A stretch of DNA of 62,680 nucleotides, the filler included, from Rhabdomonas costata (taxonomy: Eukaryota): the NCBI GenBank assembly GCA_019059605.1. It is 43 parts of 43 records of this genome, joined end to end, with 100 filler letters (N's around TTAATTAATTAA, not from the genome) between each part and the next. Parts side by side here need not be neighbours in the genome. Positions count along the whole stretch, not along the records: positions 36,661 to 38,027 come from JAHMHO010018084.1; 42 more parts are not named here. One strand, 5' to 3'. Both the position numbers and the translations under genes were made by a program. The notes under the pieces were generated by a model. The model was not told where the DNA came from. It saw only the letters and a program-made list of their open reading frames with translations, and made no database searches. Below are positions 18,301 to 49,671 of this stretch, piece after piece. The number at the start of each line of letters is the position of its first letter. Position 1 is the stretch's first letter.

Positions 18301-19536
18301 AAGAACATCCATTAGGGATACGTGTCACTTCACTCTCATGATGGTCCCTTCATCCCTCAGGGCCCATCATGTTCGTTCCGTCCTGGCGTAGCCACAGGAA
18401 GAGAATACAGGTAAAGGTGAAGGTCACGGAGGCATGAGTCACGCAGTGGGTCATGCCGAAGTAGAGGTAAAGACACGAAGCGAAGCGGAGTAGAGGATAG
18501 AGACAAAGCTGGTAGGAATGCTAACATCAACCCTCTCACCTCACCACAAAACTCAAGGCCTCGAAACACCAGCATCATTCACTCCCTCACTTCCACACAA
18601 GCACTCAAGAAGCAGTGGTGACAGAAACAGCAGCAAGGACAACAGGAGGGTCAGAATTCCACACGTCAACCCACACGTCAACCAACTCAGAAGGCAGCAA
18701 GGCATCACAAACACACACCGTAACACAAGCACTGGTAGAGAGCATGGTTGAAGCACAAGGACTGGAGACAGAAACGCTGGAGACAGAAACGAAGGAATGC
18801 AGAAAGGCATCGGAGTCAACATACGCATAAACAACACAGGAATTACCAGCACAGGAGCCACCAACGCAAGATCCACGCATCGTCACACCCTCCAACTCAG
18901 CATCCACACTCACCCTCTGACTCAGCTTGACATCGACACCCTTACAACCAACGCTCGAGACACCANNNNNNNNNNNNNNNNNNNNNNNNNNNNNNNNNNN
19001 NNNNNNNNNTTAATTAATTAANNNNNNNNNNNNNNNNNNNNNNNNNNNNNNNNNNNNNNNNNNNNAGACAGTCAGCTCACCTCCCACGCCATGATCGGGT
19101 TCAGCTGTAGGGTTTGAGTGACGTTGCATCACCGGTCACCTTACGCCTTACCTCATCAAGGGGCTGGTGTACGCTATAGCCTAGCATCCATCACTAGGTC
19201 TTTCATCTGACGCCCAGATACGCCAGGTATCTCACTGTGACTCCCCACGCATAGGGTCCACGTAACACGTATTTCCAGGCGAACCTGATGACAACGTAGA
19301 TCGTGCGCCTCAGCTCAACTTCACCATATGCGTCCATTGGTTACTGGCCTCGTGAGCAACGTCCTTGTTGTATTCGTGTGTGAGTAGAGTGTAGTTGGTG
19401 TCTGTGATCGTCTCGGTCGTCTCACAGCTCGGTAGGACCCGGCCTTGCCTGTCGGTCAACATGCCTGTGACTGTGGATCGCCCTCCCTTCCTTAATGTTG
19501 GCCTTCCAACGCTGGAAATCCCGAAGGAAATCCTAG

Positions 19537-24952: not shown

Positions 24953-25718
24953 GGAAAGCACTTCTCCCCGGAGCTGCGGGACTTGCTTTCCCACATGCTG
25001 GTCGCAAACCCTAACCGCCGCTACACTCTGGAGGACATCGTGCGTCACCCTTGGTACTGCCCTTTGGGCCTTTTTGAGTGGCCACCCGGTTCCTCGTCCT
25101 TTCTTTATGGCCGCCATTGCTTATTTCTCCTACGCTGTACAACGTACAGCGCGACAGTCGCGACCAACCCCGGATGCCTTTTTATCGTTTTTTTCTGGAC
25201 CGGTTGAGGCTTGGGGCGTCGCCGTTTTGTTTGAAGCCCTGCAAGAGTTTTCTTGCGAGCGAAAGAGGAGAGAAAGATGTGAAAGCACAAGCGCACTCCT
25301 CGATTTTACCGCATGGAACCAATAAGAAGTCCAGCCAGTGTGCTTGTGGTGCAGCTCTGGAATGCATCCCTGAAAGACATCCGTACTGTGGGGGGCTCTC
25401 TTGTTCATCCTCTCCCTCTGTGAAACCTTTTTTCAAACGCCCTCCTCGGGCGCCCACGCCCCTGTATCTTTGTTGTCCTCTGAGCACTGCCGAAGGATGG
25501 AACCATCCTTAAATCTCCGTCACTGTTGCACCTGTTTAAGGGCATTTTGGGTCCTCTCTCTCTCTTTGAGGCGCAAATAAATCCGACACGGTGTCCATTC
25601 CATCTTCGCCAGGATGCAGCCCATGCCGGAGGCGGAGCTGGAGTATGTGCGGCAGTTCAACCCGGACATGGCAACCGCGGCGGAAATGGATGAGGCCATT
25701 GAGCCCGTGGCCGAGGAG
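24953..25718 (+). CDS. Ser/Thr kinase (CAMK/AMPK-like), subdomain XI plus following exon; exons ~24953-25053 and 25613-25718
   Basis: FSPELRDLLSHMLVANPNRRYTLEDIVRHPW (L..ML..NP..R....I..HPW); the Trp codon is split TG|GT...AG|G in phase. Confidence 0.85.
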
Positions 25719-28004
25719 GTCGCCCCCTTGTTATATGCCTTTTCCCGGGCCCTTCCCTTCGCACTCTCTGAACCCCTTCCCTTCCCCTTTTCCACCTCCT
25801 TGCTCAGCGCTTTCGCTTCTTCCTGTGCCTCGATCGATCGATGAACAAACAAACGAAAGGCGGCGCGAATCCAGCTCGCAACGTGTTGCAAAGGAAATGA
25901 TCTGCATTACTCTGGACCATTCCTCCGAAAATGATGACAGCTTGCATCGCCTTGGACGCGCGTTCACATCACCTTATAGTTTGTTGGATCCCCTTGGGAG
26001 CCTCCCTGTGGGTCCCCTTGCCCGGGGATAAACGCGTGTGTTTAATTCCTGTCAGATCATAAACACCAGCTTTTCTGTAGTGCAGTTGAGAGAGGGATGC
26101 GTTTCGTTCGTCTGTCTGCGTTTGTCTGCGCTGCTGAATTCCCATTTCTTGAGCAAACGAGAAGCCAATTTGCCCCGATGCATATCCTGTAGGTAAACCC
26201 CACCCCCCTCTTAAGTGGAATGCGCCCGATAAAAGATGCAGTACCAAAAACTAACAGAGCATTTGTTTCCTTTCGAAGACAATGAGCACCCAACAAANNN
26301 NNNNNNNNNNNNNNNNNNNNNNNNNNNNNNNNNNNNNNNNNTTAATTAATTAANNNNNNNNNNNNNNNNNNNNNNNNNNNNNNNNNNNNNNNNNNNNGAA
26401 GAGAGCCAATATACCAGCTGATGCGTGAATTCGAGCGAAGACAAAAACCTTTCCATTTCCCTCAATACTGAGAAACAAGTAGCAATGGGCACAACAGGAG
26501 CTCAAACAACATTTTTTGGGGATGCCATTCCAAAATCAACTCACCACAAAGGGATCAGGTTCGGCATGGGCGACAAGGAGGCTATTGGTGCGACCCATAA
26601 CTGGGCAACTGCCTTTGTCTGGATTGAATGGGGAAAGACTGAGCTGGATGTCGCGCGTCAGTTCACGGAGACACCAGGTGGATCGCCGTTCCTTTGGAAG
26701 CGCCTTGCGCATGTGTATCGATGGCTACGTAAGTGTGTGTGTGTGTGCGGTACGCGCGCATGAAACTCTAATACGAGCGCGGTTCATTTTCAGCAACCTG
26801 GGAACTCCATTGCAAGTAAAACGCAGCACACCATCTGGGCACGGATATTCATTGCGTGCGCGTGGGAGGGGTGGGATGAAAGGGCTTGCAATGGGTGTGT
26901 CTGTCACCTACACGAACCATTACGCTCAGCTGTTTGCAGGCAGCGAGCAGGGAGTGGAAACGCGCAGAGAGGGGTGTGCAGGAAAAACGCGCACAAAAAA
27001 TGCGGTAAAATTCCAGGAGAGCTGATGGGCAAAGCAGATAATCTCACAATCTGTTTCCCATCGTTACGCCCCTGCACAGCACTGCACAGCACTTCAGCCG
27101 AATGGAGGTTGCTCACAGTGGAGCAGGGAAATACCTCGAATTGATCAAGCACGGTTGCGGTATCAGGTTGGGGAAACTCAGTGGTTCAAACACGACATTT
27201 ATCTGGCGCCGTGGGAAAAAACTGCGGGGATGAGGGGTGTACGTGCACACTCTTCCTTCTTATCGTGTGCACCAAAACCGGATGCGAGTGTATATGTGTG
27301 CACAAGTCAGTGTGAGTGGGTGAGTGGGTGTGGAGGTTGCTGTGTAGCCCCGGTCACAGGAGCACACGAAATGCACGTGTGACTTCGGAGCACCACGACG
27401 ATACACATTAAGTGAGTGAAGTACGCGGTTGCCACGTACGAAGATATGCTTGCTGATGGGGCGACCAGCAGTTTTGGCAAGAAACAAGCGCACAAAAAAA
27501 ACAGTGGCAAAAGTCGAGAACGGAGAAGTCATGGGAGGAACAGAACCTTACAATCTGTTTCCCATCAAGAGAGGCGGAGAGCTAAAGTGACGAAGGAACC
27601 TTACAGGAGAGTGAGAGCACGTACAGCGTTCACAGGTTGTGGAAACCTGGTCCTCCATGCTGAGTTGGTGCGCGGGCAAGTCGGGCACAAGCACTGTGAG
27701 GAGAACTCGTCGTTGTGTATCAAAACAGGAAGATATGCCCAAAAACCCCAAACACACCCACACNNNNNNNNNNNNNNNNNNNNNNNNNNNNNNNNNNNNN
27801 NNNNNNNTTAATTAATTAANNNNNNNNNNNNNNNNNNNNNNNNNNNNNNNNNNNNNNNNNNNNTTGTGGTTGGGTACTTTTGATATCAATTTCGATGTCC
27901 GGAAAGCCTGGTGATACCTTGCGGAGCGGGCTCAGTGTTTTACAACGCTGCTCAGACCTTTCGCCAAAAACGGTCTTTCTGGCACTCATTCGCCTTTTGC
28001 GCAG

Positions 28005-28509
28005 GTATCTCATCCATGCCCCTGTGGCGGGCAAGCGCCAGGACTCCTGGCGGGCCCTGGAGCAGCTCAAGCGGGAGGGCCTGGCCCGCTCCATTGGGGT
28101 CTCAAACTACGGCATCCATCACCTGCAGGAGCTGTTGCAGAGCTGCACCATCCGCCCTGCGGTGAACCAGATCGAAGTTCACCCCTTCCTCACCCAGGTG
28201 CCTTTGGTGGCGTTCTGCCAGTCGCAGGGGGTTTTGGTGCAAGCCTACTCGCCGTTGGCGAGGGCGCAGCGGATGGGGGACCCCGGGCTGGTTCGAGTGG
28301 CTCAGCGAGTGGGGCGTAGCGCTGCGCAGGTGATGCTGCGGTGGGCCCTGCAGCGCGGGATGGTTGTTCTGCCTAAGACGGTGCGGGAGGAGCGTCTGCG
28401 GGAGAATCTGGCGGTGTGGGACTTCGAGCTGGGTCCAGGGGAGGTGGCCGCGCTGGACCAGCTGAACTCTGATCTGGTTACGGGCTGTGACCCCACGAAG
28501 TGGCCCTGA
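28005..28509 (+). CDS. Aldo-keto reductase (AKR5-like), terminal exon
   Basis: After the acceptor TTTTGCGCAG: YLIHAP...WRALEQLKREGLARSIGVSNY...PAVNQIEVHPFL...QAYSPLA...AQVMLRWALQRG.VVLPKT...RLREN..VWDFEL; stop TGA. Confidence 0.95.
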
Positions 28510-29387
28510 AACTCGCTGGATTTACTGTTTGTTAATGTCAGCGGGTTTAAAAATATCATTTGATGTTTTGGAGAACTGCAGTGATCAGTAACAATAGTAT
28601 GGTGTCGCCGCCTTTTCATCAGTCGTTTTTTCGTTTCTTGACCTTTCGTTTCTTTTTTTTTTTTGATATTTTCTCTGCCTTTTTTTTATTGATTAGCCAC
28701 CTTTCCGTGCTTTGAGACTCTGATTTCGAACAACACTCGATGCCCTCATCAATTTTGCTGGGGGACAGCTGTTCTTGCTATGGTTCTTTGTCGCTAGGAC
28801 GGAGGTCCTTGCACTTTGGTTCTCACTGCATACCATATGCTATGGTTGAAGTTTAAGTATCTGTGCACCTCCGGAAAATTGTGCTCAGGGACGAGGGACG
28901 CTTGAACATGTCTGAGACTCAAAGGGGTTTTCTTGGATCAATAGGACGCATAACCGCAAAAGGATTGACCTCTACGGATGTGAAGTGTGTCACAACATTC
29001 TTTGTAGCACCGATGAACAATTCTTCCAGTGTCGATGCCACGGCGACCTTGTGGGCGAACGTACGCTAAAACGTTGTTGTTAAACCCCTGCCATCTTGTG
29101 TCGTTTACCAGCTTCTTCGGCGATCTCTATCTATTTTTTCCTCATCCTCGGGAGGTATTCCATTTTTTCAATGACATCCGCCCACGCCGCTGGCCGGGGA
29201 CCGGAGGTTCCGGCCGTCTCCCACAAACANNNNNNNNNNNNNNNNNNNNNNNNNNNNNNNNNNNNNNNNNNNNTTAATTAATTAANNNNNNNNNNNNNNN
29301 NNNNNNNNNNNNNNNNNNNNNNNNNNNNNTGTGGGTTGTGGGGTGTTGGGCACCTGATGTTGGGGGAAATCCAGAACACCTTGTCCA

Positions 29388-30399
29388 CTCTGATGCAATC
29401 TCTGATCTTCCACAAGATGCTCATCTGCGCGCTGACCGAGGTGGACAAGGTGTTCTGGATTTCCCCCAACATCAGGTGCCCACCGCCCCAAAAGTGCACT
29501 CCGATTCTTCGTGGAATTCGTGGAATGAATTCTTCGTGTGATGCCAAGTTTGGAAAGACATTTGGTCCGCGTCACAATAGAAGTGATAATCTTAGAAATC
29601 CAATGATAAATACATGGAAATGTCAATCCAACGAAGCGGGCAGGGTAACTAGGGTCGCTCAGCGAAATGTTCACATTCATTTATTTGGACATTTTTCCCT
29701 TTTGAAGTGAAGTGAAGTGGACAATCTTGCCGCGTTGACCCACGCCTGTCTTTGTTTTCACCCAGTTTTGTAAGGCTACGTCTGCCGCGAAAAAGACGCT
29801 GCCAAACACCATTTTTTAGGTAGTGGCTAGTGTGACTTTGAGGGGGGTGGGGTGATGATGCACTTTTGCCTCCCTCCTCCCCTCATTTCATGCAAGGTGC
29901 ATAATACCTTTTTGGGGTTTGCTGGATTACCTGGATGGGTACTTATGCACAAGGAAAGACTTGCCAACAGACCTGGAGATTATTGCAAGGTAAATTGCCC
30001 GCGGCCAAAGTCCGCGGTGTGCATTGGGGTGCGTGATGGGGTGATTCTGATTTCGGGGGCGCAAGGGTGCACAATTACCCCCCCCCTCCCTCTAAATGCA
30101 TCGGGTCCCGGACGTAGACCCGCTTCTTTGTGCTAGATTTTTGGGGTGATTTTTGGTCGTGCCTCATTACACGATTTGTGCCGCGTGCCGCTGCACGGAC
30201 AGGAAGGAGGTGAACGTGGGGAATGTGAAGCGGTATGCTACGGAGTTCACTCAGATCGACTTCGAGGCGACGGGCATGGACATGACCTCCGCCATGGCTC
30301 TGATCGAGGAGGTGATCAAGCACGTAGTGAACACCCTGGCCATGGAGGACGCCGCGCTGATCAAGCGGATCTCCGGCCGTGAGCTGCAGAAGATGACCG
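29388..30399 (+). CDS. Archaeal-type asparagine synthetase A (AsnRS/AspRS catalytic-core paralogue), exons ~29388-29475 and 30203-30399
   Basis: Spliced LMQSLIFHKMLICALTEVDKVFWISPNIR^KEVNVGNVKRYATEFTQIDFEATGMDM... is class II aaRS motif 2 in the S.I.HK...SPNIR.E...R...EFTQ.DFE form recalled for AsnRS2/AS-AR; GT-AG intron in phase 2. Confidence 0.72.
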
Positions 30400-30804
30400 G
30401 TGCGTATATGTGTGGTAGAGGGGTGCGTGAACGTATGTTTGGTTTTTATGAGTCATTCATAGCGGTCCAACCGCATTCTCCCAGAACACGGCAACCGCAC
30501 GGGCACTATCAGCCACAAAAATTCAGGCCCAGGGCAATCCCAAAATACCAAGACGCTTGTCTCGCAAGGCAGTTCGGGCACTCACCTAACCCAATTTTCC
30601 AACAAACAATTGCGCATAGCGGTTGCCGTGTTCTGGGAGAATGCGGTTGGACCGCTATGAATGACTCATAAAAACCAAACATACGTTCACCACCCNNNNN
30701 NNNNNNNNNNNNNNNNNNNNNNNNNNNNNNNNNNNNNNNTTAATTAATTAANNNNNNNNNNNNNNNNNNNNNNNNNNNNNNNNNNNNNNNNNNNNAGTTT
30801 GTGT

Positions 30805-31215
30805 TTATGATACTCGGCGGGCCATGCTGGGCCATCGGGGATAGTCTCGGTTCAGCACTCGGGCCCACAGCGAATCCTCCTGGACAAACAGGTTCCAAAG
30901 CCGGCGCACATGCCAAACGCTTCCGTCAAGGTCCTCGAAGGGAAGGTAGGTCAGAATCAGAAACACGATATCCATCGGAAGGGCCCGTAGAGGGTCGGTG
31001 TCCCCACGAAAGCATCGCGCGCACACCCGGTGAGCTCTCGCGTTCTGGTCGGGGTTGAAGTATGAGCAGCACTGGTGGCAAAAGTGGTTCCCGCACTCTG
31101 AGCAGAGGTATTTCCAGCGAAACGCGGTCAGCTTGCGGTCGCACTGCATGCAAAATATCGGGGCCTGTGGGCGCTGCAGAGCGAGTGCTAGGGAAGAGCA
31201 GGAAACGCTTGACAT
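30805..31215 (-). CDS. FYVE-like zinc finger plus F-box protein (N-terminal part)
   Basis: CMQC..LTAFRWKYLCSECGNHFCHQCC...RVCARC (eight-Cys FYVE spacing), then LPMDIVFLILTYL..EDL....HVRRLW......LW (F-box). Confidence 0.8.
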   Translation of the reverse strand: MSSVSCSSLALALQRPQAPIFCMQCDRKLTAFRWKYLCSECGNHFCHQCCSYFNPDQNARAHRVCARCFRGDTDPLRALPMDIVFLILTYLPFEDLDGSVWHVRRLWNLFVQEDSLWARVLNRDYPRWPSMARRVS

Positions 31216-33808
31216 CGTAATGGGATAAAGGAGGCAGCACTGCAAGGGCACAGGTAGCGATGTGACGGACAACATGCCGAACAGAAAAGCACTCGTCAAG
31301 CGCATTGAGACAGCAATTACCACGGAAACAGGGAGCCCTTTAAGTAAGGGTGGAGGACAATAAAAAGCAAAAATCTGACTAATGGGAACCAGAAGCAGCA
31401 GAAACCTAAGTTGCCCAGCATCAGCCCAGACGTTTGGAATCAAAGCAAGTGAACCGATGCCGTGTTTCTCTCTCGCAATGCTATTAGCTTGGGTGGGTGC
31501 TCAACGTACTAGCGTCTTGATGTGGCCACCCTTCCACCGCCCAAAGAATCGGGTTGTTCGCGCCATCTATTCGAGCCACGAACCAAAAGAAGAGGAGACA
31601 TGGGTTACCAGGGTACCAATGCGGAGTGCACAGAGCGCGAGCTTTTGTTTGGCATGGGGGCAGTCAAACAGGCTTCCACTTTGGAAAAGGAAGAGACTCA
31701 CTACCGCAAGAAAGATAAAATGCGCACGGGCAGTTCGGTCGGTATCGCCACAGAAAAGCTGCCATAAAATGAATGACTGCCACGAGAAGAAAACATACGA
31801 GCACAAAAACACTAAAACAAATCAAGGCAGGCAAAGCCAACTCACAAAGCACCTAGTCCAACAAACTCGGCAAATATCTTCCTTCCAAAACTCAAAAAAA
31901 CAAGTGGCCGCCCCTCTCCACCCTTCTCAGTCTCGCGTCTCTCCTGCACACACACCGTCTCTTTAGTGTTTCAGCACAGCTGCCGCCTTCCTTCTGAGCA
32001 TACCCCATAAAACCCTTTGGCTGTCCTTTGGAAGCCTGAAAGCCCCACTTCACCCCAGATCTGGCCTCGGCAAGGACTTGCCACAGGTTCACCCAGGCCT
32101 CTCGGGCAATCACCGCACCTGCCCTGAACGGAGGTAAAACCACACAGAGCCATGCCGCTCGGNNNNNNNNNNNNNNNNNNNNNNNNNNNNNNNNNNNNNN
32201 NNNNNNTTAATTAATTAANNNNNNNNNNNNNNNNNNNNNNNNNNNNNNNNNNNNNNNNNNNNGTGGGGGTGTTGAGAGCCTAACATAAAAAGAAAGAAAG
32301 AAGCCGGCACACCCTTGCAGCAAAACCGCTCTGGAGTTAGTAATAACACAAGCACGTTGATGGATACGTGACGTGCAAAAACATTTCCTCGCCAAGTTCA
32401 ACCCCAGCAGGCTGCATGTCAAGCATCAGATGCATTTACCAACTCTGCATCCAAAATCCTATTGGTACATTCTAGCGGGGACGCTCTGCGATAGCTTTAT
32501 ACGGCAAGAGCAGGAGCACTGGAATACCAATGGCCACTGCAATGGCCCCCGAACGCTAAGCCTCCTTTTTGTATTTCTTTGTGCGCGCCGGAGGTGCTTC
32601 TTTCTTTCTTTTTATGTTAGGCTCTCAACATCCCCTACTGCACACCTTCACCAAGGGTCTCTCGAAGGCTCAGAAAAAGGTCTCACTGTGCCCTCTGCGC
32701 CAGTTCACCGTTGGTGTCGAGACCCAGGGTACGGGATGTAATGAAACATTGCTATGGCCCAAATAGACAAAGTTGGCTTTTGGAAAACCTCAAGTCGTCC
32801 CGAAGCAACACCTGTGGTCACCCTTTGTATTTTTCACATATCTTTGGTTTAGCGGAGAGGCTGTCAACAATAATTCGGGTGGCCGAAGGCTCATGGGGGA
32901 GATTCCTCGGTCTCCTCCATCTCCTCTCAGGGTAACGCACGCGCGAAGCGATCTCAAGAGGATGGTGGCGTTCCCTTGCCTTCGGTCACCCCAACAGCAA
33001 CAGTCGCGGTGAATGCGGTACTGTCTTTATTGCTTTCGTTTGTCTGCACGTCTCACGCAAATCTTCCTTGGTGACTTTGGAAGAAAAGAAAGAGAAGAAA
33101 AGAATCGGTTGTCCGTTTTCCGTGGAGTCTTTCGTCCCGAATACAGTGCTGCTCCCCTTCGGTTAGGTGTAGTCCAGCTCCTGATTTCGGAAATTCTATT
33201 TTGAAACTCTCCTACTCGCTTGAGTCGACACTCCGGCTCTTAGCTTTGGGCGGCTGTTTTTCTTTTGGTTTTTTTATGTCGCTGCAAGCATTGTGTAGAA
33301 AAAGAGGTTGGTAAGGCGATGGATAGGAAGTTAAAGGGGGGCACCCGCCGCGTTTTTTATCTCTCCCCGAAGCGAAATGAGCTAGAGCCTCAATGCCTCA
33401 ATGTATGTGTCGCTGGTCTCAGAAAAACCTGTGCATCGCACGTCAAGAACGCCTCAAACTACCTTGTCACCGTGAAACTATACCCCGGCCAAAGCGAGTT
33501 GGAATGTGGTTTTCCGTTGGGTCGTCTGTTTTCTTTTGGGGAAACAGATCTTCGCCGCCCAGGTCAAGAAGCGCGTGCCTGGGCGCCACCCCCCACGGCG
33601 AGGGGCCCCCCAGGTACACCCCCCAACCNNNNNNNNNNNNNNNNNNNNNNNNNNNNNNNNNNNNNNNNNNNNTTAATTAATTAANNNNNNNNNNNNNNNN
33701 NNNNNNNNNNNNNNNNNNNNNNNNNNNNCAATGTCCTCCTAAGTCAAAACAAGATCCCCAGTTGCGTCAACAGCTTGTGCGAGTGGGTGCGTGGGGAGTG
33801 CGGCTTGC

Positions 33809-36560: not shown

Positions 36561-37373
36561 NNNNNNNNNNNNNNNNNNNNNNNNNNNNNNNNNNNNNNNN
36601 NNNNTTAATTAATTAANNNNNNNNNNNNNNNNNNNNNNNNNNNNNNNNNNNNNNNNNNNNCTCTGTATAGGTAGTGGTGTAGCAACCACGTCAACCCTAT
36701 GCGTAGTGGTGGTGATGTTGTGGTGGATCGAGCCCTGTGTGATGTTGTGTGTCATCGCCTTGTCATTCTGTCTGCTGTGTATCCCGCAGTGTAAGTCCTG
36801 AGTGATGGTGTTGGCATCAGGTCATGGCAGCTTGGCATCCCTGCATCAACCCATGGGTCTGTTACCATGGTTCTAGTGCAGTGTGTGTGTCAAGTGCTGG
36901 TTCTGTGCTGATGTTGACGTGGATGGCAACGGAGGATGATGTCAGCATCCCGTGATCGGGGCCATGCATCGAGTGGTGGAGTTGAAGGCGCTCCAACCAA
37001 GTGATGTGTGGTTACGCCAATGCTGAGGGTGAACGTTACCCTTAGCAACGTAGCAACCATCGCTACAAGGCCACACCTTACCACATCAACCCCAAGGGTA
37101 GGAGTTCTGCGTGGCTTTGCCCGGACGGAGTGAGTGAAAGCACCTTAGGGTGGTGGAACGAACGAAGTGACACGTATAGCTAATGGTGGTGTGAGCAAAA
37201 CCGTGCAGCGGTGGAGGGAGCCGTCATGGTTAGAAGTGTTGTGTTAGTGATGGGTTGAGAGAGCGTACCGCATTATGGCGGGGAGCGAACGATGAGAGAA
37301 GGGTTGATGGTCGCTGCGTCACTCCATCCGCGATGCTCCGGTCGTTCCTTGCTCCTTCTTCTGTCGGTCACAA

Positions 37374-37912
37374 TCGCTACGCTCATGTTCCCTCCTGTCA
37401 TAGTCGTCACACTCGTCGCTACGCTCCTCCTGTTCCTCCGGTTCACAATCGACTCTCACTTCGTTCGTGTCTCATGTTCACAACGGTTGTTTCATGGTCG
37501 TCACACTCGGCATTCACGTAGTTCATGCCTCCTGTTCTTCCTTGGTCGACATTCAACTCTCACTGCGTTCGTGTTTCATGTCTCCTACGTTTACCCATGG
37601 TCGTTACAATCGCTCGTTACACTCGCTCATGTTCCTCCGACGTCGACATTCATTCTCACTCCCTCCGGTCGTTCGTATTCATGTCTCCTCTGCATTCAGT
37701 CGTCGTCACTCCGTTCCTCCTCCGGTTCACAATCGACTCTCACTTCGTTCGTGTCTCATGTTCACAGCCATGGTAATACGGTTCACACTCGACATTCACT
37801 GCGTTCATGTCTCCTGTTCACTGGTCGGTCGTCGCGATGCTCCTCCCTCCTGTATACGTGTCGGCATTCACTGCGTTCATGCCTCCAATCCCCACTCATT
37901 CTCGCTACGCTC
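37374..37912 (-). repeat. Degenerate tandem array with ten GA-XC-GNA-GX'-GA mini-hairpins
   Basis: Plus-strand complements TCGCTACGCTC (37374, 37416, 37902), TCACTTCGTTC (37456, 37740), TCACTGCGTTC (37560, 37796, 37868), TCCCTCCGGTC (37660), TCACTCCGTTC (37706). A block of about 45 bp (CCTCCGGTTCACAATCGACTCTCACTTCGTTCGTGTCTCATGTTCACA) is duplicated. Confidence 0.9.
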
Positions 37913-38127
37913 GTATTGTAGCTGGAGTCCTTGCGGAGGGTGGTACCGCCAGGTGCTGAACACGGAACTATCAACCGGTCTACCAAGCATCCAGCTACAC
38001 CCCGACGGGAAAATTTACCCACCCCCCNNNNNNNNNNNNNNNNNNNNNNNNNNNNNNNNNNNNNNNNNNNNTTAATTAATTAANNNNNNNNNNNNNNNNN
38101 NNNNNNNNNNNNNNNNNNNNNNNNNNN

Positions 38128-39337
38128 TGTGGGTGGTGTGCGACCATCGGAGCTTTACGCAGATGAGTGGGTCGCCACATAGCCTGTGGGGACTTTCGTG
38201 GTTCCCTTTGCTCATACACGAGCAGAGTTGCCTCCTCTGCCCTGTACGCCTCCGATGGTCGCACACTATCATCATCAAAAAGACACCACATTCCGTCTCC
38301 TCTCCCCCGAATGTCGACTGTGCAGATGCCAGGTCTAATTGCCACGGTGACTGCACCATTGTGGGTAATTCCCTGGCGGTCAAATTAAACCGAACTCGTT
38401 TGAGTCATAGAACAAGCACCTGCGGGAGCTTTGCCATGCTAGCCTTTTCGTTGCGCGCAATTTCCGTTGACATCTGGGGCATATGAATGCGTTTTCCATG
38501 TCCAGAACCTCATCCCCGAAGTGGTCCATCAGGCACGCATCCAGGGCGACGATAGGTCTTTCCGGGACGGCCATAAGCACAACGGTCTCTTCCCTTACTG
38601 TTGATGTCTTACCTCCACATTCCGGGCATTCAACACTTGATTCTTCCATGTGGGACACGATTTCTTTAATCACATTGTTGGCCTCTGCACTTTCTTGTCC
38701 ATGCTCCTCCACTGGCGTACCAGGACTCAATGCCTTCTTTTGAAGCACCTCCCAGATTTGACTCAGGAACTCCACCACATCGTGTTGACCGCCATATCCA
38801 AATTGGGGTAATGCATCAAACACGGAAGCCCGTTGGGTTCAGGATAGAGTGGTTTCCCAATCATGACATTCGCACCAGTGTCTCCCCAAGGGCCCGCGTC
38901 AGGGATTTACCTCTGCTCACTATCTATTGACCATGTCGTCGGGGCAGAATTCGTCCCATCACTTGGAGGCTCACGTTGAGGAAGCATAAATTCCCTTTGT
39001 CTCTACCAACCTTGTTCCACAGTCCGTACCGGTTCGGTGGTTCTCCTGTGACCACCTTTTCTTCATTGAAGTTCTTCACAAACCGCGTGCCAAGTCCATC
39101 CCTGTCATCCCCGTCATTTCGCCGCTCCGTGGCTTCCGATATGGATTCTTCATCCGTGTTGCTCCCATCGCGCTGTCCATCACATTTCCGAGAGTCGGCC
39201 ATCGCCTCCGTGTCGTCCCCTGAGCCCGCTAAACCTTCCTCTCCTTCACCTGAGTGGACTGTGGGGTTCGAACTTAGCCGTCTTGTCCAACACTTTCTCA
39301 AAAAGCTTCCTGCATTGTGCTGTTGCAATTCTCTCAA
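38128..39337 (-). pseudogene. Degenerate intronless ubiquitin-specific protease (peptidase C19)
   Basis: Cys box GLWN...GNLCFLNVSLQ, QHDVVEFL, CPECG, LDACL.DHFGDEVLD.ENAF.CPRC, LPQVLVL*LKR; several stops and frameshifts. Confidence 0.82.
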
Positions 39338-39656
39338 AATTGCTGCTGCCTCTTACATCCCCGGCGTTGCTTCCGGGGGTTCCTGCCCTCTGGGTGTCTC
39401 CCGTTCTGGCCTGGGGTTTGGTCCTTGGTCCTCCCAACTTTCACCCAAGGGCTCTCTACTTTCTGTTTGGTGGGGTTGCGAGAACCCACCCCANNNNNNN
39501 NNNNNNNNNNNNNNNNNNNNNNNNNNNNNNNNNNNNNTTAATTAATTAANNNNNNNNNNNNNNNNNNNNNNNNNNNNNNNNNNNNNNNNNNNNGGTTTGG
39601 GGTTTGGGTTTTGATTGTTGGATTCGTCTGCCCTGTGCGTTGCCGTTTGTTTCACT

Positions 39657-39757
39657 CAGTTTGCAGTTTGCAGTTTGCAGTTTGCAGTTTGCAGTTTGCA
39701 GTTTGCAGTTTGCAGTTTCAGTTTCAGTTTCAGTTTCAGTTTCAGTTTCAGTTTCAG
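39657..39757 (+). repeat. Compound microsatellite (CAGTTTG)8(CAGTTT)7
   Basis: Read directly from the sequence. Confidence 0.97.
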
Positions 39758-42546
39758 CGGAGTGCATAGAGACCGTTTCTGACGGGTTCCCCCTCCCTTC
39801 TCAAAAGCAGACAGGCGGGAGGCTCGCCCTATACGGGCTACTCTCTGCACCCCCTCGTCCTACTGTAGTTTATTGGGCGTGCTGAGCAAGGGTACTCTCT
39901 CCCTTTTAGCTCAGCACTGGCGACAACAAAAAAAAGGGAGGGAGACGCCACCCTATGATAAATGATGGGTAAGCGGAATTTTTGAAAAAAAACAATTATT
40001 GTGCCGAAATGAAATGACAATCACGGAAAAAATTACAGAAAACTGGCACATTGTACCGAATTGTGAAGCAGGGAAAAAATCACAGAAAACAACAATCAAC
40101 GCAACATGCCCGCACAGTAGCCTCTCGTCGTAATACTTTGGTCTCGAAACAGAGGGAGCCTTTGCAGCAACCGAAAGCCAAGTTTTCCAAAACCACTGAA
40201 GAGGAGGAGGAACAGTGTCCAAGAACTGCTGAACTCTGGGATCAAACTGCAAAGGTGGAGCCAAACTGGACCTGAGAGCCGCGGAAGTGAACACAAGGGT
40301 TATTGAAAAACAGCATCGTGCAGCCTGCGTTCGAGCGCCCTCAATCGTACTATATGTGTTAAAGTGTCAAACCAAACCTCGTGTTACAGCACCTGAAGTT
40401 TGCGCGCGCGCACGCACACACACAAATACACACAACAACAAAGGTTCAGTTAGTTTCACGCCATTTTGCGCCATCTGTCGCCATTGTGCGCGGGCCACAA
40501 CTCCCATGCAAAACCAAAAACCTCTCCAATGGGCAGCGCCTCGCAAAAAGAGAACATCACTCCTCACTCTCATAAACACAGACCTTGTTTGTTGCCCATC
40601 AACTGCGTGGGCCGAAGGCGAAATTGATTGGACGAGATAGGATGGACCCGAAACAGAGGGGCCCAAGAGAAGAGGTGGACGCGGCTGGTAAGACATCGGA
40701 CATTGAGAGAAAATCGAAAAGCAGGGAAGCGTTGAAGTGTCCACAGCAACAGGGCAGTTCGTGAAAGCCGCATAATCAATTAGGGAAGAGGACGGCATCT
40801 CCACGTTGTTTTTCAGCGGATAATCAAGCTCATAAGTGGACAAAAACGGGCGCGCGTTCAAACAAACACAGACACAAAGGAAAAAGATCACAACGGCAAG
40901 AAAAACATTTGCTCAACAAAAACAGACAAACAAAACAACCACACACACCCAACACNNNNNNNNNNNNNNNNNNNNNNNNNNNNNNNNNNNNNNNNNNNNT
41001 TAATTAATTAANNNNNNNNNNNNNNNNNNNNNNNNNNNNNNNNNNNNNNNNNNNNGGGTGGGTGTGCCTCCCTGGCCCACCTCTCTGTGATTGCCGTGGC
41101 GCTGGATGAGTACACGCCAATGGAGGCGGTGCTTCCTCCCGTGCTGCGTGCAAGAACGTCGTGTGGGCCTCGGCCGGTGCTGGCGCGGTGCAGCATTGGC
41201 CGGAGGCTGAGCCCCGCGCTGGTGCGCGCTGGTGGGGATTGTGTTAAGGCTTCTAAGAGAGCGTGCGGAGGAGTGGCCGTTCCAGGATCTAAGTTTGAGC
41301 CGCCGCTGATGGGGGTCAGGAAAGATCTGGTCGGCGGCCACGCATTCCCATTTCCTCGGCATCGGTTTGCACTGGAGCGTTCGCTGAAGTCTCGGCATCC
41401 GCCAGAACAACAGAGCCAGCTTTGAGAAAAGATATGATTGCAGTCGAGGTACCTCGCCGTTAATATAAAGACCCTGCCTGTTCCCTCCCGCAGACCAGTT
41501 CCTTCGTCAGTACCACCCAGGAGAGTATTCATCGGAGTCGGAGCTTTCATCCTTAGGCGCCGTCCTGCGTATCGCTGATGATAACGTTGAGCTTGATGTT
41601 AACGCGAACGTCGTTTGTATTCAAAACCTCAGAGCTCTGTGTATCTCCATGAGATAACTCGACTACGAACAAGAAATGGCCAGATGGGCTATTTGAAAAC
41701 CCTACACCTAAAGCCTACACCAGTTACGGTAGCCGCAGTCCTTCAGGAAACGTTCGCACGGGTATATGCGTCGCGATTACTCTTTTTGGATTTCTTTTTA
41801 TCGTCATCATGTGCACGTGCGGGAATGAGTGTGCCCAATATGCCGGCACACTACTTTCCTCACCACACCTTCCTACCGCCATGCAAAGTTCGAAGAGCAG
41901 ACCGGCGGAATAGTGGAGAGCAGCAGTAGCCTCATCGCCGCTGCCCTTGCGGTTGCCAGGATGTCTTCGTTGACGGCGCTGCGACTGAGTTTGGGAGGCT
42001 CTCCGCCAGTGCACTACAGGTAGTGGGCAGTGACTTTGTCCTGCGGAGCATTATGCGACCTCCCCATTCCAAGTCACAATAGAGTGGGAGCGAGGGTTCT
42101 TCGGGCGGTGACGAAAAGTTAGTATGGTAGGGGTTTTCAATTCAAGTCCTGGGAACGTTTCAGAACGCCGATAGGCTTCCAGATTGGATCTTCTTCCATT
42201 CGCCATGGTATGTCCAGGGCTGAAAGGCGTAGGTAATGTGCGATTCAACTACTACTATTGGTTGCAGTGTAAGTGTTCAGGTTTTCAAGTCAGAGGTCTC
42301 CCTGTCATCTCGGTGATTATATTCGGAACCTAGGCTCTCAAGTTTCTGCCATCCTCTCACCCTTCTTCGCAATGCATTGTATCCGTGGATACCAATATAA
42401 ATCTGTAACCCCCCCCACACNNNNNNNNNNNNNNNNNNNNNNNNNNNNNNNNNNNNNNNNNNNNTTAATTAATTAANNNNNNNNNNNNNNNNNNNNNNNN
42501 NNNNNNNNNNNNNNNNNNNNGGATACCTGCATTGCTCCATTGCGGC

Positions 42547-42996: not shown

Positions 42997-45900
42997 GTCT
43001 CGCCCCTGGGAGTATCGGGGGTCTATTTCCTGCGGTCGGCCTCTCCTGCTCTGCGTCTCTTCTCCCTGGATGCTCAGTGCTTGATCCCCGCCACCCTCTT
43101 TCCCTGCCCCTTCTCTCCTGTCGGCTCCTTTCTCACAAAGGAGAACCCGTGATTTTTTTTCTTTGCCTCTTTTGAGCTTGGATTGTCAACTGGTGGAGTC
43201 TTCGACGGAAGTGCGCAAAATAGAAAGTAGAAAAGCGCGTGCAGTGCGCGGCAGAAAGGCAGAAAATAACAAAGGAAAGAATATTAGGCATAGCTTCACC
43301 ACTGTACTCCCCCTAAGTGGGAACACAAGCAAGGCTTCCTAACCCCCTGTAAGCTGTTTAGTGGAAATCCTGAAGCATGGAAAGTGTCGTAACCCCCTTT
43401 TTTCTGAACGAAGGGAATGAAACTGTTAGCTCCTTTTCATGACCGTGCATACCCTTCTGCTTCCTCCCTATCTCTGCCTGAACACAGCAGACCAAGCTGC
43501 CACAGTCGCAGAACACACGCACAGCGGTGAGCCGGTTTCGGTCCCACGGCACCGTTCGCTCCAACGGCACCTCTCCCGAGCACCCGTGACCAGTCGAGTG
43601 GGCGCACCAGCCGGCGATCATACACCCTGTCGCCGAAGGACTTCCTGTTGTTGGCGTATTTTTGGGCGCACGACTGCGGTGGCGTGCGTCCTGTTGAGAT
43701 GTTGGGGCACTCTTCTGCGTGGATGGGCACGGCGCACACCCTCACCCCAACGCCCCGAAACTCACCAAACCCAACCTCGGCCCGCTGAGGTCGCTGCCAC
43801 CCAGGGGCCATCACCACAAAACGACCAGCCCGTCGCCTTGTTTCCTGAGGACTGGCCAGGCACCCAAGCCTGCTCCACCCCACACCCNNNNNNNNNNNNN
43901 NNNNNNNNNNNNNNNNNNNNNNNNNNNNNNNTTAATTAATTAANNNNNNNNNNNNNNNNNNNNNNNNNNNNNNNNNNNNNNNNNNNNACTGTAGGACTGT
44001 AGGTTTGAGACCACCAGCTCGCGTATTTCCTGATAAAACTGAATTAATTGGATTTGAGTGGAATCAGACGTCATTTCTTTCCCGAAACGAAACAAAGTGA
44101 GGAACAAACGAGTTAACTTGAGGGTTTTGTTCCGGTGTACTTCGGGGTGCAACGTCCCCGCCCACGTACAAGAATGTGTGTGTGTGGGGTGAGATAGACC
44201 TTTCTCAGTCATCGTCATAAGTCTTAAGTCTCGCGACTGCTCGAGACTCCGTCATCTCCAGGCAACTTATCTCCCCAATCTGGCACCTGCTCCTGGTTGG
44301 GGTGGGCCAGAGTTGCCTTCATCCTAACGCCTCGATGACATGGATTCGAGCCTACCTCGGTGCCTCACAGTATCCGTACCAGCGTTCTCCCTTCGCACTT
44401 AGCTCAGTGTGTGTGTGGTGTGTGTCACAATTTTTTTTGGGGAAGTAGTCAGCGTTTCAAGCCTTTGTAGGTCCTTCGGCCTCCAGGTTAGGGGGGGAGG
44501 TGAACTTGCTGGTCGAAAGGTACCCGACCAAAAATGGATGTTTTAACTTTTTCAAACCACATGTACCCTCATGAAAGTTTCAATTGTTGTTCAAGTTTCA
44601 ATTTCCTTTCAGCAACTTTTCGTTTCTCCGCCATCAGAAAGAAGTCCAGAATCACCCAGTGAACTTTTCAAGTGCTTGTGGTTGGTTACAGCACTGTTGC
44701 CATGGCAGTTTGAGACTGCAGGGTCACACGGGAGGAAATGTAGAGAGAAGGGTGGAGAGAGAGATGAAGGGAAGATTTGATGGCCAAAGTGATGAAGAGG
44801 AAAGTTAAAATAGAAAGAGAAAGACTATTTTGTGAAGAGGGAGTCGGATACAGGAGAAACTGCGCTTTTTTGGGACCCCCCCCCCCGAGGACTTGGCGAA
44901 CCCAAAATATCGCTAATCGCGCATGACTGTAAAACGAAGTAGACTTGTAGAAGTCGGAAAAGGTCCCTAATCAAAGTAAAAAACCCTATCGCCCTATCGT
45001 GGGGGTGTAGCGACTGTCTTTTCAGGAAAAGCCCATTTTTTTCGTCCAAAATGGCTAATTTTTGAGTTCTGCAACGAGGACCAACAGCGTCCACCGACAN
45101 NNNNNNNNNNNNNNNNNNNNNNNNNNNNNNNNNNNNNNNNNNNTTAATTAATTAANNNNNNNNNNNNNNNNNNNNNNNNNNNNNNNNNNNNNNNNNNNNG
45201 TTTTTTGGGATTTTTACACTATTTTATTATTTTATATTATTATTTTGTCATTAATATCACAAGTGTATCACCACATCAACTTTCAAAACCTTTAAAAGTG
45301 CATAACTTGTAACTTGATGTGGTGATACACTTGTGATATTAATGACAAAATAATAATATAAAATAATAAAATAGTGTAAAAATTCCAAAAAAGAAATAAA
45401 ATCCAGAAAAAGATGAAAAAGAGACAGAGTGGCACGTGATATGTGATGATGCTAAGGGTGTGTTGTACTACTACACATGCACCCCCTACGTTATTGCATA
45501 CTCCCTACATGTAGTGGTTCGTGAATTCCTCCACCCTAAGGTGCCTACATGCACTCACCTACAACGTCTCTACAGTTCGTTGCACCTGCATATGCACGGT
45601 TTCACTCACCCATAGAATAGGTGTACAAAGTCATGTCTGGATTGGCGCCATCCACTTCGGATGTTTGACTCAGGTTGGGTTAACCTTTGTGCTTGGTGCG
45701 TAACCCAATCTGCAGCATCGATCCTACCACTACCATCACCATTTACCTCTATGTGCGTACTGTCTCTACATCTAAGGGCAAGTGTACAGACACCCTATAG
45801 GGTTGTGTGTGGTTAGGGCTAGCGCATAGTTCGATCTGTGTGGCGATACAAACATCTGTGGCTGTGCCTAATCCAGTGTATAGGAACGCTTGACCACTAC

Positions 45901-48900
45901 CACCAACGCCACTACTACTGCACGTAGGTACCTTAGCTGTGGTTCTACCGTATACGTACGGTTCTACCTTCTAAGCTAAGTCATGCACTCAGGTTCAATT
46001 AGGATTGTTGTACGATCTTTTAACGATTCGTCTCTTTTAACGTTACGTCAGTTTAATCTAAAATTATCATAAATTTAGACAACTACCTGGGGTTTCGGGA
46101 TCGGAGCCCTACTCTTTGCATCTCTTCCACATGAGGTACGAAGGAACCATCATGAGAGTAGGTAGACGAATGTGCATAAGCGCCTTCTGGCGGTGGAGCA
46201 CATGAACCACCGCATTTAAGGAGCATGTGAGCACTTGCAAACATGCGACCAGCAATAACCAAAGGGCTCCAAAATACGCATCGGGGTATCGCATTCATGT
46301 AATGTACCCCTTGATGCCATTACGCTGAGTTGGAAAGAGATGGAATTTGATGGAAACCTTACATTAGCGTCTTTGTCTCACATTAGGCGTATTCTCGTGA
46401 CATGCACATTTGATGGAGGCTGGTGCTTCCCACTCGAATTTCCATCGGCAAGAAGGATGTGTTGAGTCACGAGGCCAATGCGTAGTAGGTTAGGCATTCC
46501 CTCACACCCCCTACACACCCCTTGATGGCATCGGGTATCGGGGTGACATAGGTGGCACAGAATGTNNNNNNNNNNNNNNNNNNNNNNNNNNNNNNNNNNN
46601 NNNNNNNNNTTAATTAATTAANNNNNNNNNNNNNNNNNNNNNNNNNNNNNNNNNNNNNNNNNNNNATGTGCTGCGTTTTTTACAAATGTGGTTGTGGGTC
46701 TAAATGCAACAGCTAATGGCGGATCATCATATGCAAATATTTCACACGCAAGGGCTTGAAATTCGAGTCAACAAGTGGGAGTCCAGAGTGTGCCTGAACG
46801 TTCGCATGAGTTGCTAAGTTGTAAAGGAAACTTTCCTTGTGGCGTATAGATTGAAGAAGAAAATGTCCACGATTCCATGCACAATGCGAAAAAAATGCGT
46901 ACCATATGTATTGAGGAATTGGTTTGGTAGGAGCGGAGTATTTAGATAATATGGGTTTTCAAGAAGCTTCGCGATTTGTAGAGACCCTATCTTCATGAAG
47001 TGTTTTTGAAAGAGCTAATGGAATTTCTGGGCAAAGTCAAAAATGTTGTCACGGTACGATTCCCGAACAAATTATCAGGAAGAAATAACGAATCGGACAA
47101 TAATGTGAACAACGTTTAGGAAGTTGATCGAAGTTGCGGTACGCGCACCAATGTTCAATGTAGATGAATGTTGTTGTGCTGATTTAGATCGCGTCTTACA
47201 ATTGCCCCAATCACAAACACGGAGGTTTAAAGCTCTTTGACATCAAGAGAAATTGAAAGATAAATGAATATGGGACAACTAATGAGATTCACGGTAGAGC
47301 TCCTCGTGCGCCAAAAAGTAATTTTTGAGGTCGGCCAAGGTAGCAGCACGCGCGTTTAAGGGCCGCGTCGGATGCGTGGTTGGGACCAGGAAGGTGTGGT
47401 AAGGTAGAAGCAAGTCGGGCTAAAGAGTTCCTTTTTCGAGTTTAACGTAATTGATTTATCTTCTATCAAAAACCATTCTCGAACTTGTTTTCTTAATATT
47501 CTATATAGTGTGCTTATATGGGTCCGAACGCACCGGTTGCACCCAAGATCAAAGTTTAGGCGTTGTTGCCGTTTTTTTTCCTTGGCTTCCTTATGCGTGG
47601 GATGGCGTTAGCAGAACCAAACCACCCGGAGTGGAACCCGCAAAAATTGAGCGTTCGAAATCGACGGTTTGCCAGGGTTCAGGGCAGGACGCCGCAGCGG
47701 AGGCACAAGGATAAAAGGGCCCAATCTAAGAGAGGGGTGGCTTCTAGGAGGGTTGCGCGGGCAGACGAGGAAACAGCCGCACGGAGGCGCATGGTAGGGC
47801 AGAAGAGGGGGTGCCTGGCGGGGGCAAAATAGAAAGGGGGGCCGCAGGTCTCGCGCCAAGGCGCGGGCAGCAAGAAAACGCCAAAGCCCACCACAGCAAC
47901 GCACGGGGAGAACACACACAGAAGCCGGAAAAACGAAGCCCAGGAAAACAGGCACGCCAGGATGGTGCAACAGCTTTTACAAGGGGGGCGCCCGCCCGAA
48001 AACAATGTGCAAGGGGGCAAAAACAAAACANNNNNNNNNNNNNNNNNNNNNNNNNNNNNNNNNNNNNNNNNNNNTTAATTAATTAANNNNNNNNNNNNNN
48101 NNNNNNNNNNNNNNNNNNNNNNNNNNNNNNGGGTGTTGTGAAGGAGCGAGGGCAATGAGAGTGCGGTCCCGTGTTGGTCGCTTTTGTCAGAATGCGAGTG
48201 AGTCCTCCTCGGTTCTAGACCCAGCCCCCCCCTCCCCTGCTACCACTTCTCTGGCTGTAAACAATTCTCTGGATGTAAATTATCCTCCTCCCTGTGGGTC
48301 GCAAGACCGCGCCCCACTAATTTGTGTCACAATTTCCTCGTGCAAACTTTTCAGTGCTGTGTTGTCTTTCCTTCTCGACCTTTCCAGCTCACTCACGAGT
48401 GAGGCTGTGAAGTTTTCTTTTCCTCGGACTTCTTCTGCCTTTTCGTGCGTCTCAATCTGAGTCTAAAGCATTCTCCTTGCACGTTGTGTTGCCCCAGCTC
48501 GGCCTTGATGGGGTTTGATCGGATTTGACATCTCTTCGTTCCCTCGCTCAAATCAAAAAAGGGAACGCCTTCAGAACCCGAAACCGAAGAATGTAGATTT
48601 GTCAGAGTTCTGTTCCCAGTCTACCTCCTCTCCTCGAAGCTTCTCTCTCTCTCTCTCTCTCACGTTCAAACAAGTTTGGGTCCAAATCGGCCACCTTTTC
48701 CTCTTCTTCACCAAGTTCAGTCCACCACCACGCCGTGCCCCGTTTTTTCAGTGGTTTTCATACGTTCTTTTTGGAAGACGGTGTCTGTGCGAATTCTCAT
48801 TACTTTTCCCAGTGCTTCTGCGGGGTCGGCATCATCACTCTGCCGCCCCTACCTGGCAGTGCAGCAGTTCGGGTGAGCAGTTTCCGAGGGCGAGGGAGGC

Positions 48901-49671
48901 TCAGGGAGCCTTTGCGAACCAAATAAAGGATGGGGGATCCTCTCTCGCCTTTAATTGAGAGAGTGTCCTCTCTAGGGATCTGGATGGCTTGCGGAATTCA
49001 GAACTCCCGCGGCACCAGTCCGGTATTTACGATTCCCTCGCCTCCTCACCACAAAAAGGGGGAGGAGGAGAGGGAGATAATTCCCCTTCAGGGAGGGAGA
49101 GTGGGTGAGCGCCCAGTGCCAGTGCTTGGGATTACAGAGACAAGGTGGTTCGCGTTTGCTTTTCCATCTTTTCCCCACTTTTCCCCTCGTTTTCTTTCGT
49201 TTTCCTGCACTTACTTATCATCCTCCTTTTGGTTTTGGGTGAAAGGAGGCGGTGAACTGGAACGCTGTTCTGCTGCATACCTGAGCTGACTGAGTGACAC
49301 TCAGAGGAACCGGAGTTCCTCTGATTGATATGTGTCTTGGGGGCATACACTGTCTGACAGCACTGTCGGGCAGGACGGCCCGCCCCCTCCACAAAACAAA
49401 CACGTCAGCAGAACAGCCGTTGGGTGCGGAAGGATGCTTTTGATTCTCTGCTGTGTATATATGTGAATGTGCACGTGCGCCCCACCCCACACCNNNNNNN
49501 NNNNNNNNNNNNNNNNNNNNNNNNNNNNNNNNNNNNNTTAATTAATTAANNNNNNNNNNNNNNNNNNNNNNNNNNNNNNNNNNNNNNNNNNNNGTTTTTT
49601 GTTCTTACATTATATACAATATGTATAGATATATAATATAAGAACAAAAATTATAATGTAAGTATTATTTA

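Follow-up and report, generated by a model that had tools for sequence, protein, structure and literature searches.

The stretch of DNA analysed here (the window) comprises 62,680 bases from the eukaryote Rhabdomonas costata (assembly GCA_019059605.1), and consists of 43 separate pieces of 1112-1368 bp joined by spacers of the form N44-TTAATTAATTAA-N44 (e.g. at 38028-38127). The pieces are independent contigs, and their adjacency in the window is therefore uninformative about genomic adjacency. The subject of this report is an array of short hairpin-forming units on one small unplaced contig (contig A), of which a diverged second copy is carried by another (contig B). The units are built around the core pattern GA-N-C-G-N-A-G-N-GA (GANCGNAGNGA), in which X and X' denote the two N flanking C-GNA-G. 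The features of the two contigs on which the analysis turns are the following.

36661-38027: contig A, a 1367-bp unplaced contig, delimited from the N runs and the piece list, within which the whole array lies
37366-37920, minus strand: array A, about 13-15 hairpin units with hairpin centres 34-58 nt apart
37374, 37416, 37456, 37560, 37660, 37706, 37740, 37796, 37868 and 37902 (low coordinates), minus strand: ten copies of the core motif, by pattern match
37859-37887, minus strand: hairpin in which 9 Watson-Crick pairs and 2 tandem G·A steps make up 13 stacked positions, with the core GGCAT-GA-AC-GCA-GT-GA-ATGCC
37824-37850, minus strand: hairpin whose 5' arm, (GGA)n, faces a (CGA)n 3' arm; it closes on the loop ATC and has 3 tandem G·A steps beside 6 Watson-Crick pairs
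37789-37813, minus strand: hairpin GACAT-GA-AC-GCA-GT-GA-ATGTC, with a two-sided change from G-C to A-T relative to 37859-37887
37699-37723, minus strand: hairpin around GAACGGAGTGA, built of 5 Watson-Crick pairs together with 3 tandem G·A steps
37655-37675, minus strand: hairpin CGAAC-GA-CC-GGA-GG-GA-GTGAG, a nested motif copy
37507-37531, minus strand: hairpin GGCAT-GA-AC-TAC-GT-GA-ATGCC
37160-37170, plus strand: plus-strand copy of the core motif
17599-18965: contig B, which carries the diverged second copy of the element
17856-18294, plus strand: array B, the diverged second array, with 4 exact motif copies
17864, 17999, 18128 and 18177, plus strand: these four copies, by pattern match, all with X:X' paired
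18120-18146, 18173-18191, 18272-18290 and 18074-18100, plus strand: further hairpins of the same design
17938-17961, plus strand: a perfect 9-bp stem, GTGAGGGAG / CTCCCTCAC, around CGTAGT

An initial annotation, made from the sequence alone, had listed ten minus-strand copies of the motif and one plus-strand copy at 37160, with X:X' always paired and a variable middle base in the loop. All eleven copies are present, and X:X' is Watson-Crick in every one. Among the ten minus-strand copies the pair is G:C in three, A:T in six and C:G in one, and the loop is GTA (three copies), GCA (three), GAA (two) or GGA (two), in keeping with the variability described. The whole window holds 18 matches to the core pattern, compared with 1.54 ± 1.12 in 100 dinucleotide-preserving shuffles, none of which reaches 18. 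X:X' is paired in 15 of these matches (ten in array A, the plus-strand copy and the four on the plus strand of contig B), and the three unpaired matches, at 36536, 43406 and 48531, all lie in other, unrelated contigs. These shuffle statistics overstate independence, since the units are duplicated from one another and the copies are not independent draws. The invariance claimed for the flanking GA/GA survives in part: it holds in all copies, but it is to some extent definitional, because GA is written into the search pattern. The minus strand of the array carries 16 CGNAG pentamers, of which ten have GA/GA flanks, with X:X' paired in ten out of ten, and six lack such flanks, with two paired, one G-T and three mismatched; the CGNAG pentamers of contig B number 20, of which 8 are paired, among them each of the four with GA flanks. 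The plus-strand copy at 37160 forms none of the five possible outer pairs, scores 8.9 bits (E 7.3) against a covariance model of the hairpin and adjoins a conserved box described below; it appears to be a piece of a unit in inverted orientation and not a complete hairpin.

The core motif is the tip of a larger hairpin of 19-29 nt. From its base inwards, this hairpin consists of an outer Watson-Crick stem (4-7 bp), between one and three tandem 5'-GA/GA-3' steps, an inner stem of 2 bp and a loop of 3 nt, mostly GNA. The loops TAC, ATC and ATA are also seen in the arrays beside GNA, and the hairpin at 37507-37531 fell outside the pattern of the initial annotation because its loop is of this non-GNA type. 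An extended search, on both strands of all pieces, took as its pattern a free 3-nt loop on a 2-bp stem with GA on either side. It gives 15 matches in contig A (minus strand), 5 in contig B (plus strand) and 37 in the other 41 pieces (both strands), with one match each on the opposite strand of contigs A and B. The five positions outside this motif lie beyond the search rule and were not used to select copies. The mean number of Watson-Crick pairs that they form is 3.07 for the 15 hairpins of contig A and 3.4 for the 5 of contig B, compared with 1.08 for the 37 look-alikes elsewhere. Examples of the outer stems are GGCAT..ATGCC, GACAT..ATGTC, GACAC..GAGTC, AACAC..GAGTT and CATC..GATG.

Covariation was assessed in an ungapped alignment of 20 units and 27 columns, chosen by the GA and inner-pair rule, in which three of the units (37606-37632, 37490-37516 and 37396-37422) represent a recurring spacer word and are not clear hairpins. 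The outer positions are paired in 60 of 95 cells (63.2%), compared with 21-43% when the partner is slid by 1-3 columns; none of 500 column shuffles reaches the observed outer pairing or covariation score, and all five pairs change on both sides. Pairing amounts to 73.7% if the two inner pairs, which were selected as paired, are counted as well. Many of the unpaired outer cells are accounted for by further G·A steps, and in three hairpins (37824-37850, 37699-37723 and 18120-18146) (GGA)-like arms face (CGA)-like arms, with G-C pairs lying between three tandem G·A steps.

The hairpins are confined to the purine-rich strand, which is the minus strand in contig A and the plus strand in contig B; the complement would carry C·T steps. 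In a scan in which GA opposite GA was counted as stacked, with minimum thresholds of 7 uninterrupted stacked positions and 4 Watson-Crick pairs around a 3-nt loop, and with 500 dinucleotide shuffles for comparison, the purine strand of array A contains 7 stacked hairpins (shuffle mean 0.09; 0/500 reach 7) and that of array B contains 3 (shuffle mean 0.07; 0/500 reach 3), while the other strand contains none in either array (shuffle means 0.01 for A and 0.04 for B). The other 41 pieces, taken on both strands and not shuffled, yield 0.09 per kb of strand. The strand specificity attributed to the array by the initial annotation is thereby borne out. When the 2x2 internal loop is left free, it is GA/GA in five of five array hairpins, a small sample made up of two types by descent, and 102 such hairpins elsewhere have no preferred loop. 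The minus strand at 37300-37920 is 67.5% purine and contains 12 CATG compared with 1.8 expected, an excess due mostly to the CAT|GA boundary at the stem ends.

Between the hairpins of array A the spacer word GAKTGTRAMC recurs. The array contains an internal 104-bp duplication (85.6% identity), and Tandem Repeats Finder (TRF) reports periods of 104 (1.8 copies, 78% matches) and 36 (2.7 copies, 58% matches). A classical satellite, with a regular, high-identity, head-to-tail monomer, was not found here, as the TRF copy numbers are low and the spacing is irregular.

Contig A (minus strand) and contig B (plus strand) do not align in an ordinary BLAST comparison, and their relationship was found by comparison of short words, which shows an array vocabulary common to both. 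Just downstream of each array lies a conserved box:

37164-37186, minus strand, and 18309-18331, plus strand: the 23-nt box CCATTAGnnATACGTGTCACTTC

The surroundings of this box align over 87 columns at 67% identity (E 4e-5, contig A against contig B), and its 14-nt core occurs at these two places only. Further boxes common to the two contigs (GTTCGTTCC, CACGTCAAC and CATCAACCCT) are largely collinear, with CATCAACCCT out of order, and the word CACGTCAAC occurs again further on (36913-36921 and 18662-18682). The array is part of a longer element, which measures about 1 kb or beyond and has at least two diverged copies. The hairpin covariance model picks up 18 of the 20 rows on which it was trained, as well as two additional units in contig B. 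In the other 41 pieces it finds nothing convincing (best 13.9 bits, E 0.29), so that the motif is unevenly spread and marks one repeat family present on 2 of 43 contigs. Other contigs that share 9-mers with the element (e.g. 1465-2831) were inspected at the sequence level and are unrelated. Beside array B, contig B carries three GGGGCCCC palindromes (two of them at 18156-18167 and 18227-18238) and a small second purine-rich hairpin cluster at about 18425-18495.

Comparison of paralogous units suggests that change within the family is cassette-like. In contig B, two units share the flanks ..TGGGGGCCCCATGA and GGCATGGGGT.TCAG and differ in the hairpin between them, which is CTCAC-GA-AC-GCA-GT-GA-GGGAG in one and CATC-GA-CC-GTA-GG-GA-GATG in the other; the flanks are complementary (CCCCATG/CATGGGG), and these hairpins therefore extend to about 45 nt. 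In contig A, a larger unit is present in two copies that are identical over about 60 nt and then read GGAG-GA-AC-GGA-GT-GA-CGAC in one and GGAG-GA-GC-GTA-GC-GA-CGAG in the other, with CC..GG against GC..GC further along the same pair. The proposal that structure and not sequence is what the units share is upheld, in that the outer stems covary and paralogous units keep their flanks and swap their hairpins. The double-sided changes at paralogous places could arise either by point compensation or by whole-hairpin exchange between units. Template switching is a documented source of one-step compensatory changes in hairpins (PMC8794818).

With roughly even confidence, the array can be regarded as a non-coding, strand-polar repeat family of imperfect-palindrome units, kin to the purine-rich G·A hairpin repeats; its anatomy, strand specificity, covariation, lack of coding and second locus are direct observations. 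Turnover would proceed as in hairpin-forming tandem repeats, by unit duplication and unequal exchange, of which the 104-bp duplication and the mixed periods may be the visible traces. Arm complementarity would be kept mainly by exchange of whole cassettes and by intra-strand template switching, with or without selection, and the hairpins would be expected to extrude on the purine strand when replication or transcription opens the duplex. If arm-to-arm copying is responsible, the array offers a clear case in which mutation alone imitates covariation.

Several points weigh against this assignment. The evidence comes from two 1.37-kb contigs only, and related units can beat every shuffle without any structure, a caveat of the pair-counting tool itself. 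Standard energy models do not favour the hairpins. With the DNA parameters of ViennaRNA, the fold of the 621-nt array is poorer than that of its shuffles on the purine strand (z +2.2) and no better than theirs on the other strand (z +1.5), and of 20 single units only 4 have z <= -1.6 and 3 remain unfolded, the energies ranging from 0 to -5.1 kcal/mol; for the complementary strand of the same units the corresponding numbers are 1 and 6. Folded as RNA, the 621-nt array has z -1.0, and of 16 units (three spacer-type rows and one duplicate excluded) 5 have z <= -1.9 and 4 have z > 0. The A-T terminal pair present in 6 of 10 copies lies outside the stems reported to be very stable (PMC13037366). 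Template switching, for its part, should yield perfect palindromes, and alone it cannot explain the persisting G·A steps, which leaves room for selection. As to the energies, established parameters are reported to fail to explain the stability of DNA mini-hairpins (PMC13037366), and for this reason the results neither confirm nor exclude folding.

The room left for selection bears on a second explanation, in which a protein reads the hairpin shape, either in a transcript or in unwound DNA, making the array a selected multi-site platform, for example of heterochromatin, a centromere or a non-coding RNA. This is conceivable but doubtful. The two copies, whose identity outside short words is no more than about 67%, have the same design with different stems, the G·A steps are retained while the stems vary, and the proposed shape is the minimum-energy RNA fold in 13 of the 16 units (-1.9 to -7.7 kcal/mol). 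Against these stand the absence of any Rfam 15 match (none at the gathering score in the window, and none at E up to 1 in contigs A and B), the occurrence of only 1 G-U pair in 95 outer cells, which gives no RNA-specific signature, the irregular spacing and unit length, and the fact that apparent covariation can result from the swapping of cassettes drawn from a few palindromic words. Still less likely is the more specific proposal that purifying selection acts on the hairpin design (outer stem, Y-GA-R steps and C(GNA)G tip), providing a strand-specific platform of about 15 non-B DNA or RNA hairpins with a dedicated protein reader. Possible roles for such a platform are the marking of a chromosomal domain such as a centromere, or the start of synthesis on an exposed strand, in the manner of primases and single-subunit polymerases at the mini-hairpins of phages and plasmids. 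Were the pairing selected, the array would provide a natural system in which to ask what reads such hairpins, and a selected design would be the first natural array to conserve a DNA mini-hairpin fold, and not its sequence, by covariation.

For the favoured assignment to a non-coding hairpin repeat family, the closest known chemistry is that of the CGAG block and the DNA mini-hairpin, and the closest genomic kind is the satellites, such as satellite III, from which the array differs in being heterogeneous and covarying. CGAG-block hairpins, consisting of G:C and sheared G:A pairs, were described for a CGAG-rich region of the human AUTS2 promoter (PMC10085684). Several units of the present arrays literally contain C-GA-G opposite C-GA-G (e.g. 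37902-37912 with its flanks, and 18120-18146), and three units stack two or three G·A steps, a likeness at the level of sequence only. By contrast, the AUTS2 case as described is a single short simple-repeat tract, whereas the array has about 15 units, A-T pairs as well, a defined 3-nt loop and unit-specific outer stems, its folds being predicted.

The mini-hairpins d(GCGNAGC) and d(CCGNAGG) are known for extraordinary thermal and nuclease stability. They are said to require two terminal G-C pairs, GC..GC or CC..GG (PMC13037366). The C(GNA)G triloop on a 2-bp stem, in which G and A can form a sheared pair, is common to them, to all ten minus-strand copies of contig A and to the four copies of contig B. 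Stems of the reported kinds, GC..GC or CC..GG, close the loop in 4 of the ten contig A copies and in 3 of the four from contig B; unlike the mini-hairpins, the other 6 and 1, respectively, have AC..GT stems. Natural examples are found on phage and plasmid strands, in the origins of G4, St-1 and alpha3 and in RSF1010 ssiA (CCGAAGG), and the promoters of the phage N4 virion polymerase have a 3-base GGA or GAA loop on a 5-bp stem (PMC13037366). As far as that review's available text goes, all are single origin or promoter sites and not eukaryotic arrays; the same text contains no mention of ColE1, near whose primosome assembly site the initial annotation had placed such a hairpin.

These precedents underlie a further explanation, in which the array is a series of single-strand initiation signals, where a primase or single-subunit RNA polymerase starts on hairpins of the displaced strand, on the model of G4, RSF1010 ssiA and N4. 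Sites of single-strand initiation or primosome assembly adjoin an origin on a replicon with one exposed strand, where a primase or a PriA-type protein reads them. The canonical words GC-GNA-GC and CC-GNA-GG occur within the motif, all units point in the same direction on one strand, and mini-hairpins have known natural uses at priming and promoter sites, some with GGA or GAA loops and 5-bp stems (PMC13037366). However, the cases documented in the available text are bacterial plasmids and phages with one or two hairpins each, not 15 (PMC13037366), and the flanks of the arrays resemble the surrounding intron-bearing eukaryotic DNA. Neither contig A nor contig B contains a replication gene, a Pfam domain or an organelle gene, and scans of viral, metagenome and prokaryote collections for conserved words of the element are empty: the first conserved pattern has no match in metagenome and viral contigs, and the second none in metagenome and prokaryote genome contigs. 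Nothing on either contig indicates a replicon or points to priming. The priming role first suggested for the array is very improbable here, and would come into consideration only if the arrays sat on an organelle or extrachromosomal molecule.

An organelle setting would also accommodate a mobile palindromic repeat of the type that, in certain green algae, fills GC-rich genomes of mitochondria and plastids and fragments short-read assemblies into small contigs. In chlamydomonadalean organelle genomes, GC-rich palindromic hairpin repeats have been described that disrupt short-read assemblies (PMC7235400, PMC6205361). Like these, the present units are many short, GC-rich, hairpin-forming repeats of one family, in non-coding DNA that is hard to assemble, and they occur on 2 of 43 small unplaced contigs. 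Unlike the present units, the algal repeats are described, in the text available for both papers, without G·A steps or strand polarity, a distinction drawn from descriptions only. The lack of an organelle gene on either contig tells against such a repeat, as do the flanks, which have the same CpG and TpA depletion as the other contigs by dinucleotide signature (CpG observed/expected 0.67 and 0.50 in the flanks of the two arrays, compared with 0.79 ± 0.11 in the other contigs). This origin is accordingly improbable, and the host DNA of the element is probably nuclear, part of the eukaryotic genome. Array A itself is CpG-rich (observed/expected 1.41). The genome has introns, as seen in a thiolase first exon within 10395-11114 (minus strand), which ends at a GT after 'FGC' with no continuation in any frame. 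A kinetoplast minicircle was also considered and rejected: the universal minicircle 12-mer has no exact match, matches with up to 2 mismatches number 9 compared with 5.1 expected, and the genome contains introns.

Among the tandem repeats to which the favoured repeat family is most akin, Drosophila dodeca-satellite has a purine-rich strand that folds back on G·A pairs. Such folding is likewise reported for the purine-rich strand of human satellite III (PMC11014236). The array resembles satellite III in being a tandem repeat in which the purine-rich strand alone folds, with sheared A-G pairs spaced by Watson-Crick pairs. By contrast, the satellite III and dodeca monomers are regular, 5-12 nt long and many times repeated, whereas the units here are 34-58 nt apart, heterogeneous, and covarying rather than identical. 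Purine repeats that fold by G·A pairing are thus known as a chemistry and as simple satellites, and mini-hairpins as single phage or plasmid sites; in the present element that chemistry takes the form of a heterogeneous array, in which the fold persists as the letters vary, at two mutually diverged places in a eukaryotic genome. No such array was found described in a literature search, in which subscription journals and supplements were outside the scope, and literal 11-mers of the motif occur in the literature as primer coincidences only. Likenesses to engineered hairpin arrays, sequencing adaptors, SECIS, k-turn and iron-responsive elements were set aside because the symmetric 2x2 G·A loop, 2-bp stem and 3-nt loop do not fit them, and because of the diverged second locus.

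Two long open reading frames (ORFs) overlap array A on the opposite strand.

37259-37918, plus strand: 220 codons, stop to stop
37404-38027, plus strand, other frame: 208 codons, stop to stop

These ORFs raise the question of a translated repeat protein, and the occurrence of six contigs in the window with fold-backs at their ends, which indicates that the assembly holds artefacts, raises that of an assembly or amplification artefact. Neither ORF has a Pfam family or any relative among 1.84 billion representative proteins. Stop-free runs of at least 208 aa occur in 50 of 300 dinucleotide shuffles of the same strand, and runs of at least 150 aa in 175 of 300, so that composition explains the ORFs. 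The two frames are open together, neither the repeat periods nor the indels come in multiples of three, and the minus strand contains 33 TGA. A further 32 ORFs of at least 45 aa on both contigs have no Pfam match, and no tRNA was found. The long plus-strand ORFs are shadows of base composition; the initial annotation had taken them for shadows of the repeat, and was right to deny them coding status. Whichever account of the hairpins is preferred, long ORFs over such arrays are not genes. As for an artefact, the fold-backs have long perfect arms and are unlike 20-nt hairpins with G·A steps, and the second locus is diverged. An origin in a coding repeat or an artefact can hardly be credited.

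The fold-backs are near-perfect inverted arms of about 25-130 nt with a short unique loop, placed exactly at a contig start or end (4399-4592; 8549-8697; 24935-25009; 29336-29493 and 30421-30695; 45201-45392; 49596-49650), and look like an assembly or amplification artefact, not biology. Gene fragments elsewhere in the window are the following.

10395-11114, minus strand: thiolase
27865-28506, plus strand: aldo-keto reductase, C-terminal half
30150-30668, plus strand: class II tRNA synthetase exon
30808-31500, minus strand: FYVE ORF
38383-38838, minus strand: ubiquitin hydrolase

The best relatives of the aldo-keto reductase fragment in a protein search have about 60-61% identity and come from many phyla, and the FYVE ORF has in addition a sub-threshold F-box-like match. 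The protein search gives no relatives for a 291-aa ORF, whose best protein-atlas score is 0.76. Two contigs differ in composition from the rest of the window (about 52% G+C): that at 49594-50952 has 31% G+C and contains a 191-aa ORF without a Pfam family, and that at 45200-46565 has 43% G+C. These low-G+C contigs may derive from an organelle, a contaminant or an AT-rich region. Other repeats in the window include a clean heptamer microsatellite, (CAGTTTG) x 14.9, at 39657-39754 near the start of contig 39594-40955, a 100-bp direct repeat of 98% identity in contig 61315-62680 (61316-61415 / 61653-61752), and a 40-nt inverted repeat of 97.5% in contig 32263-33628 (32265-32304 / 32596-32635).

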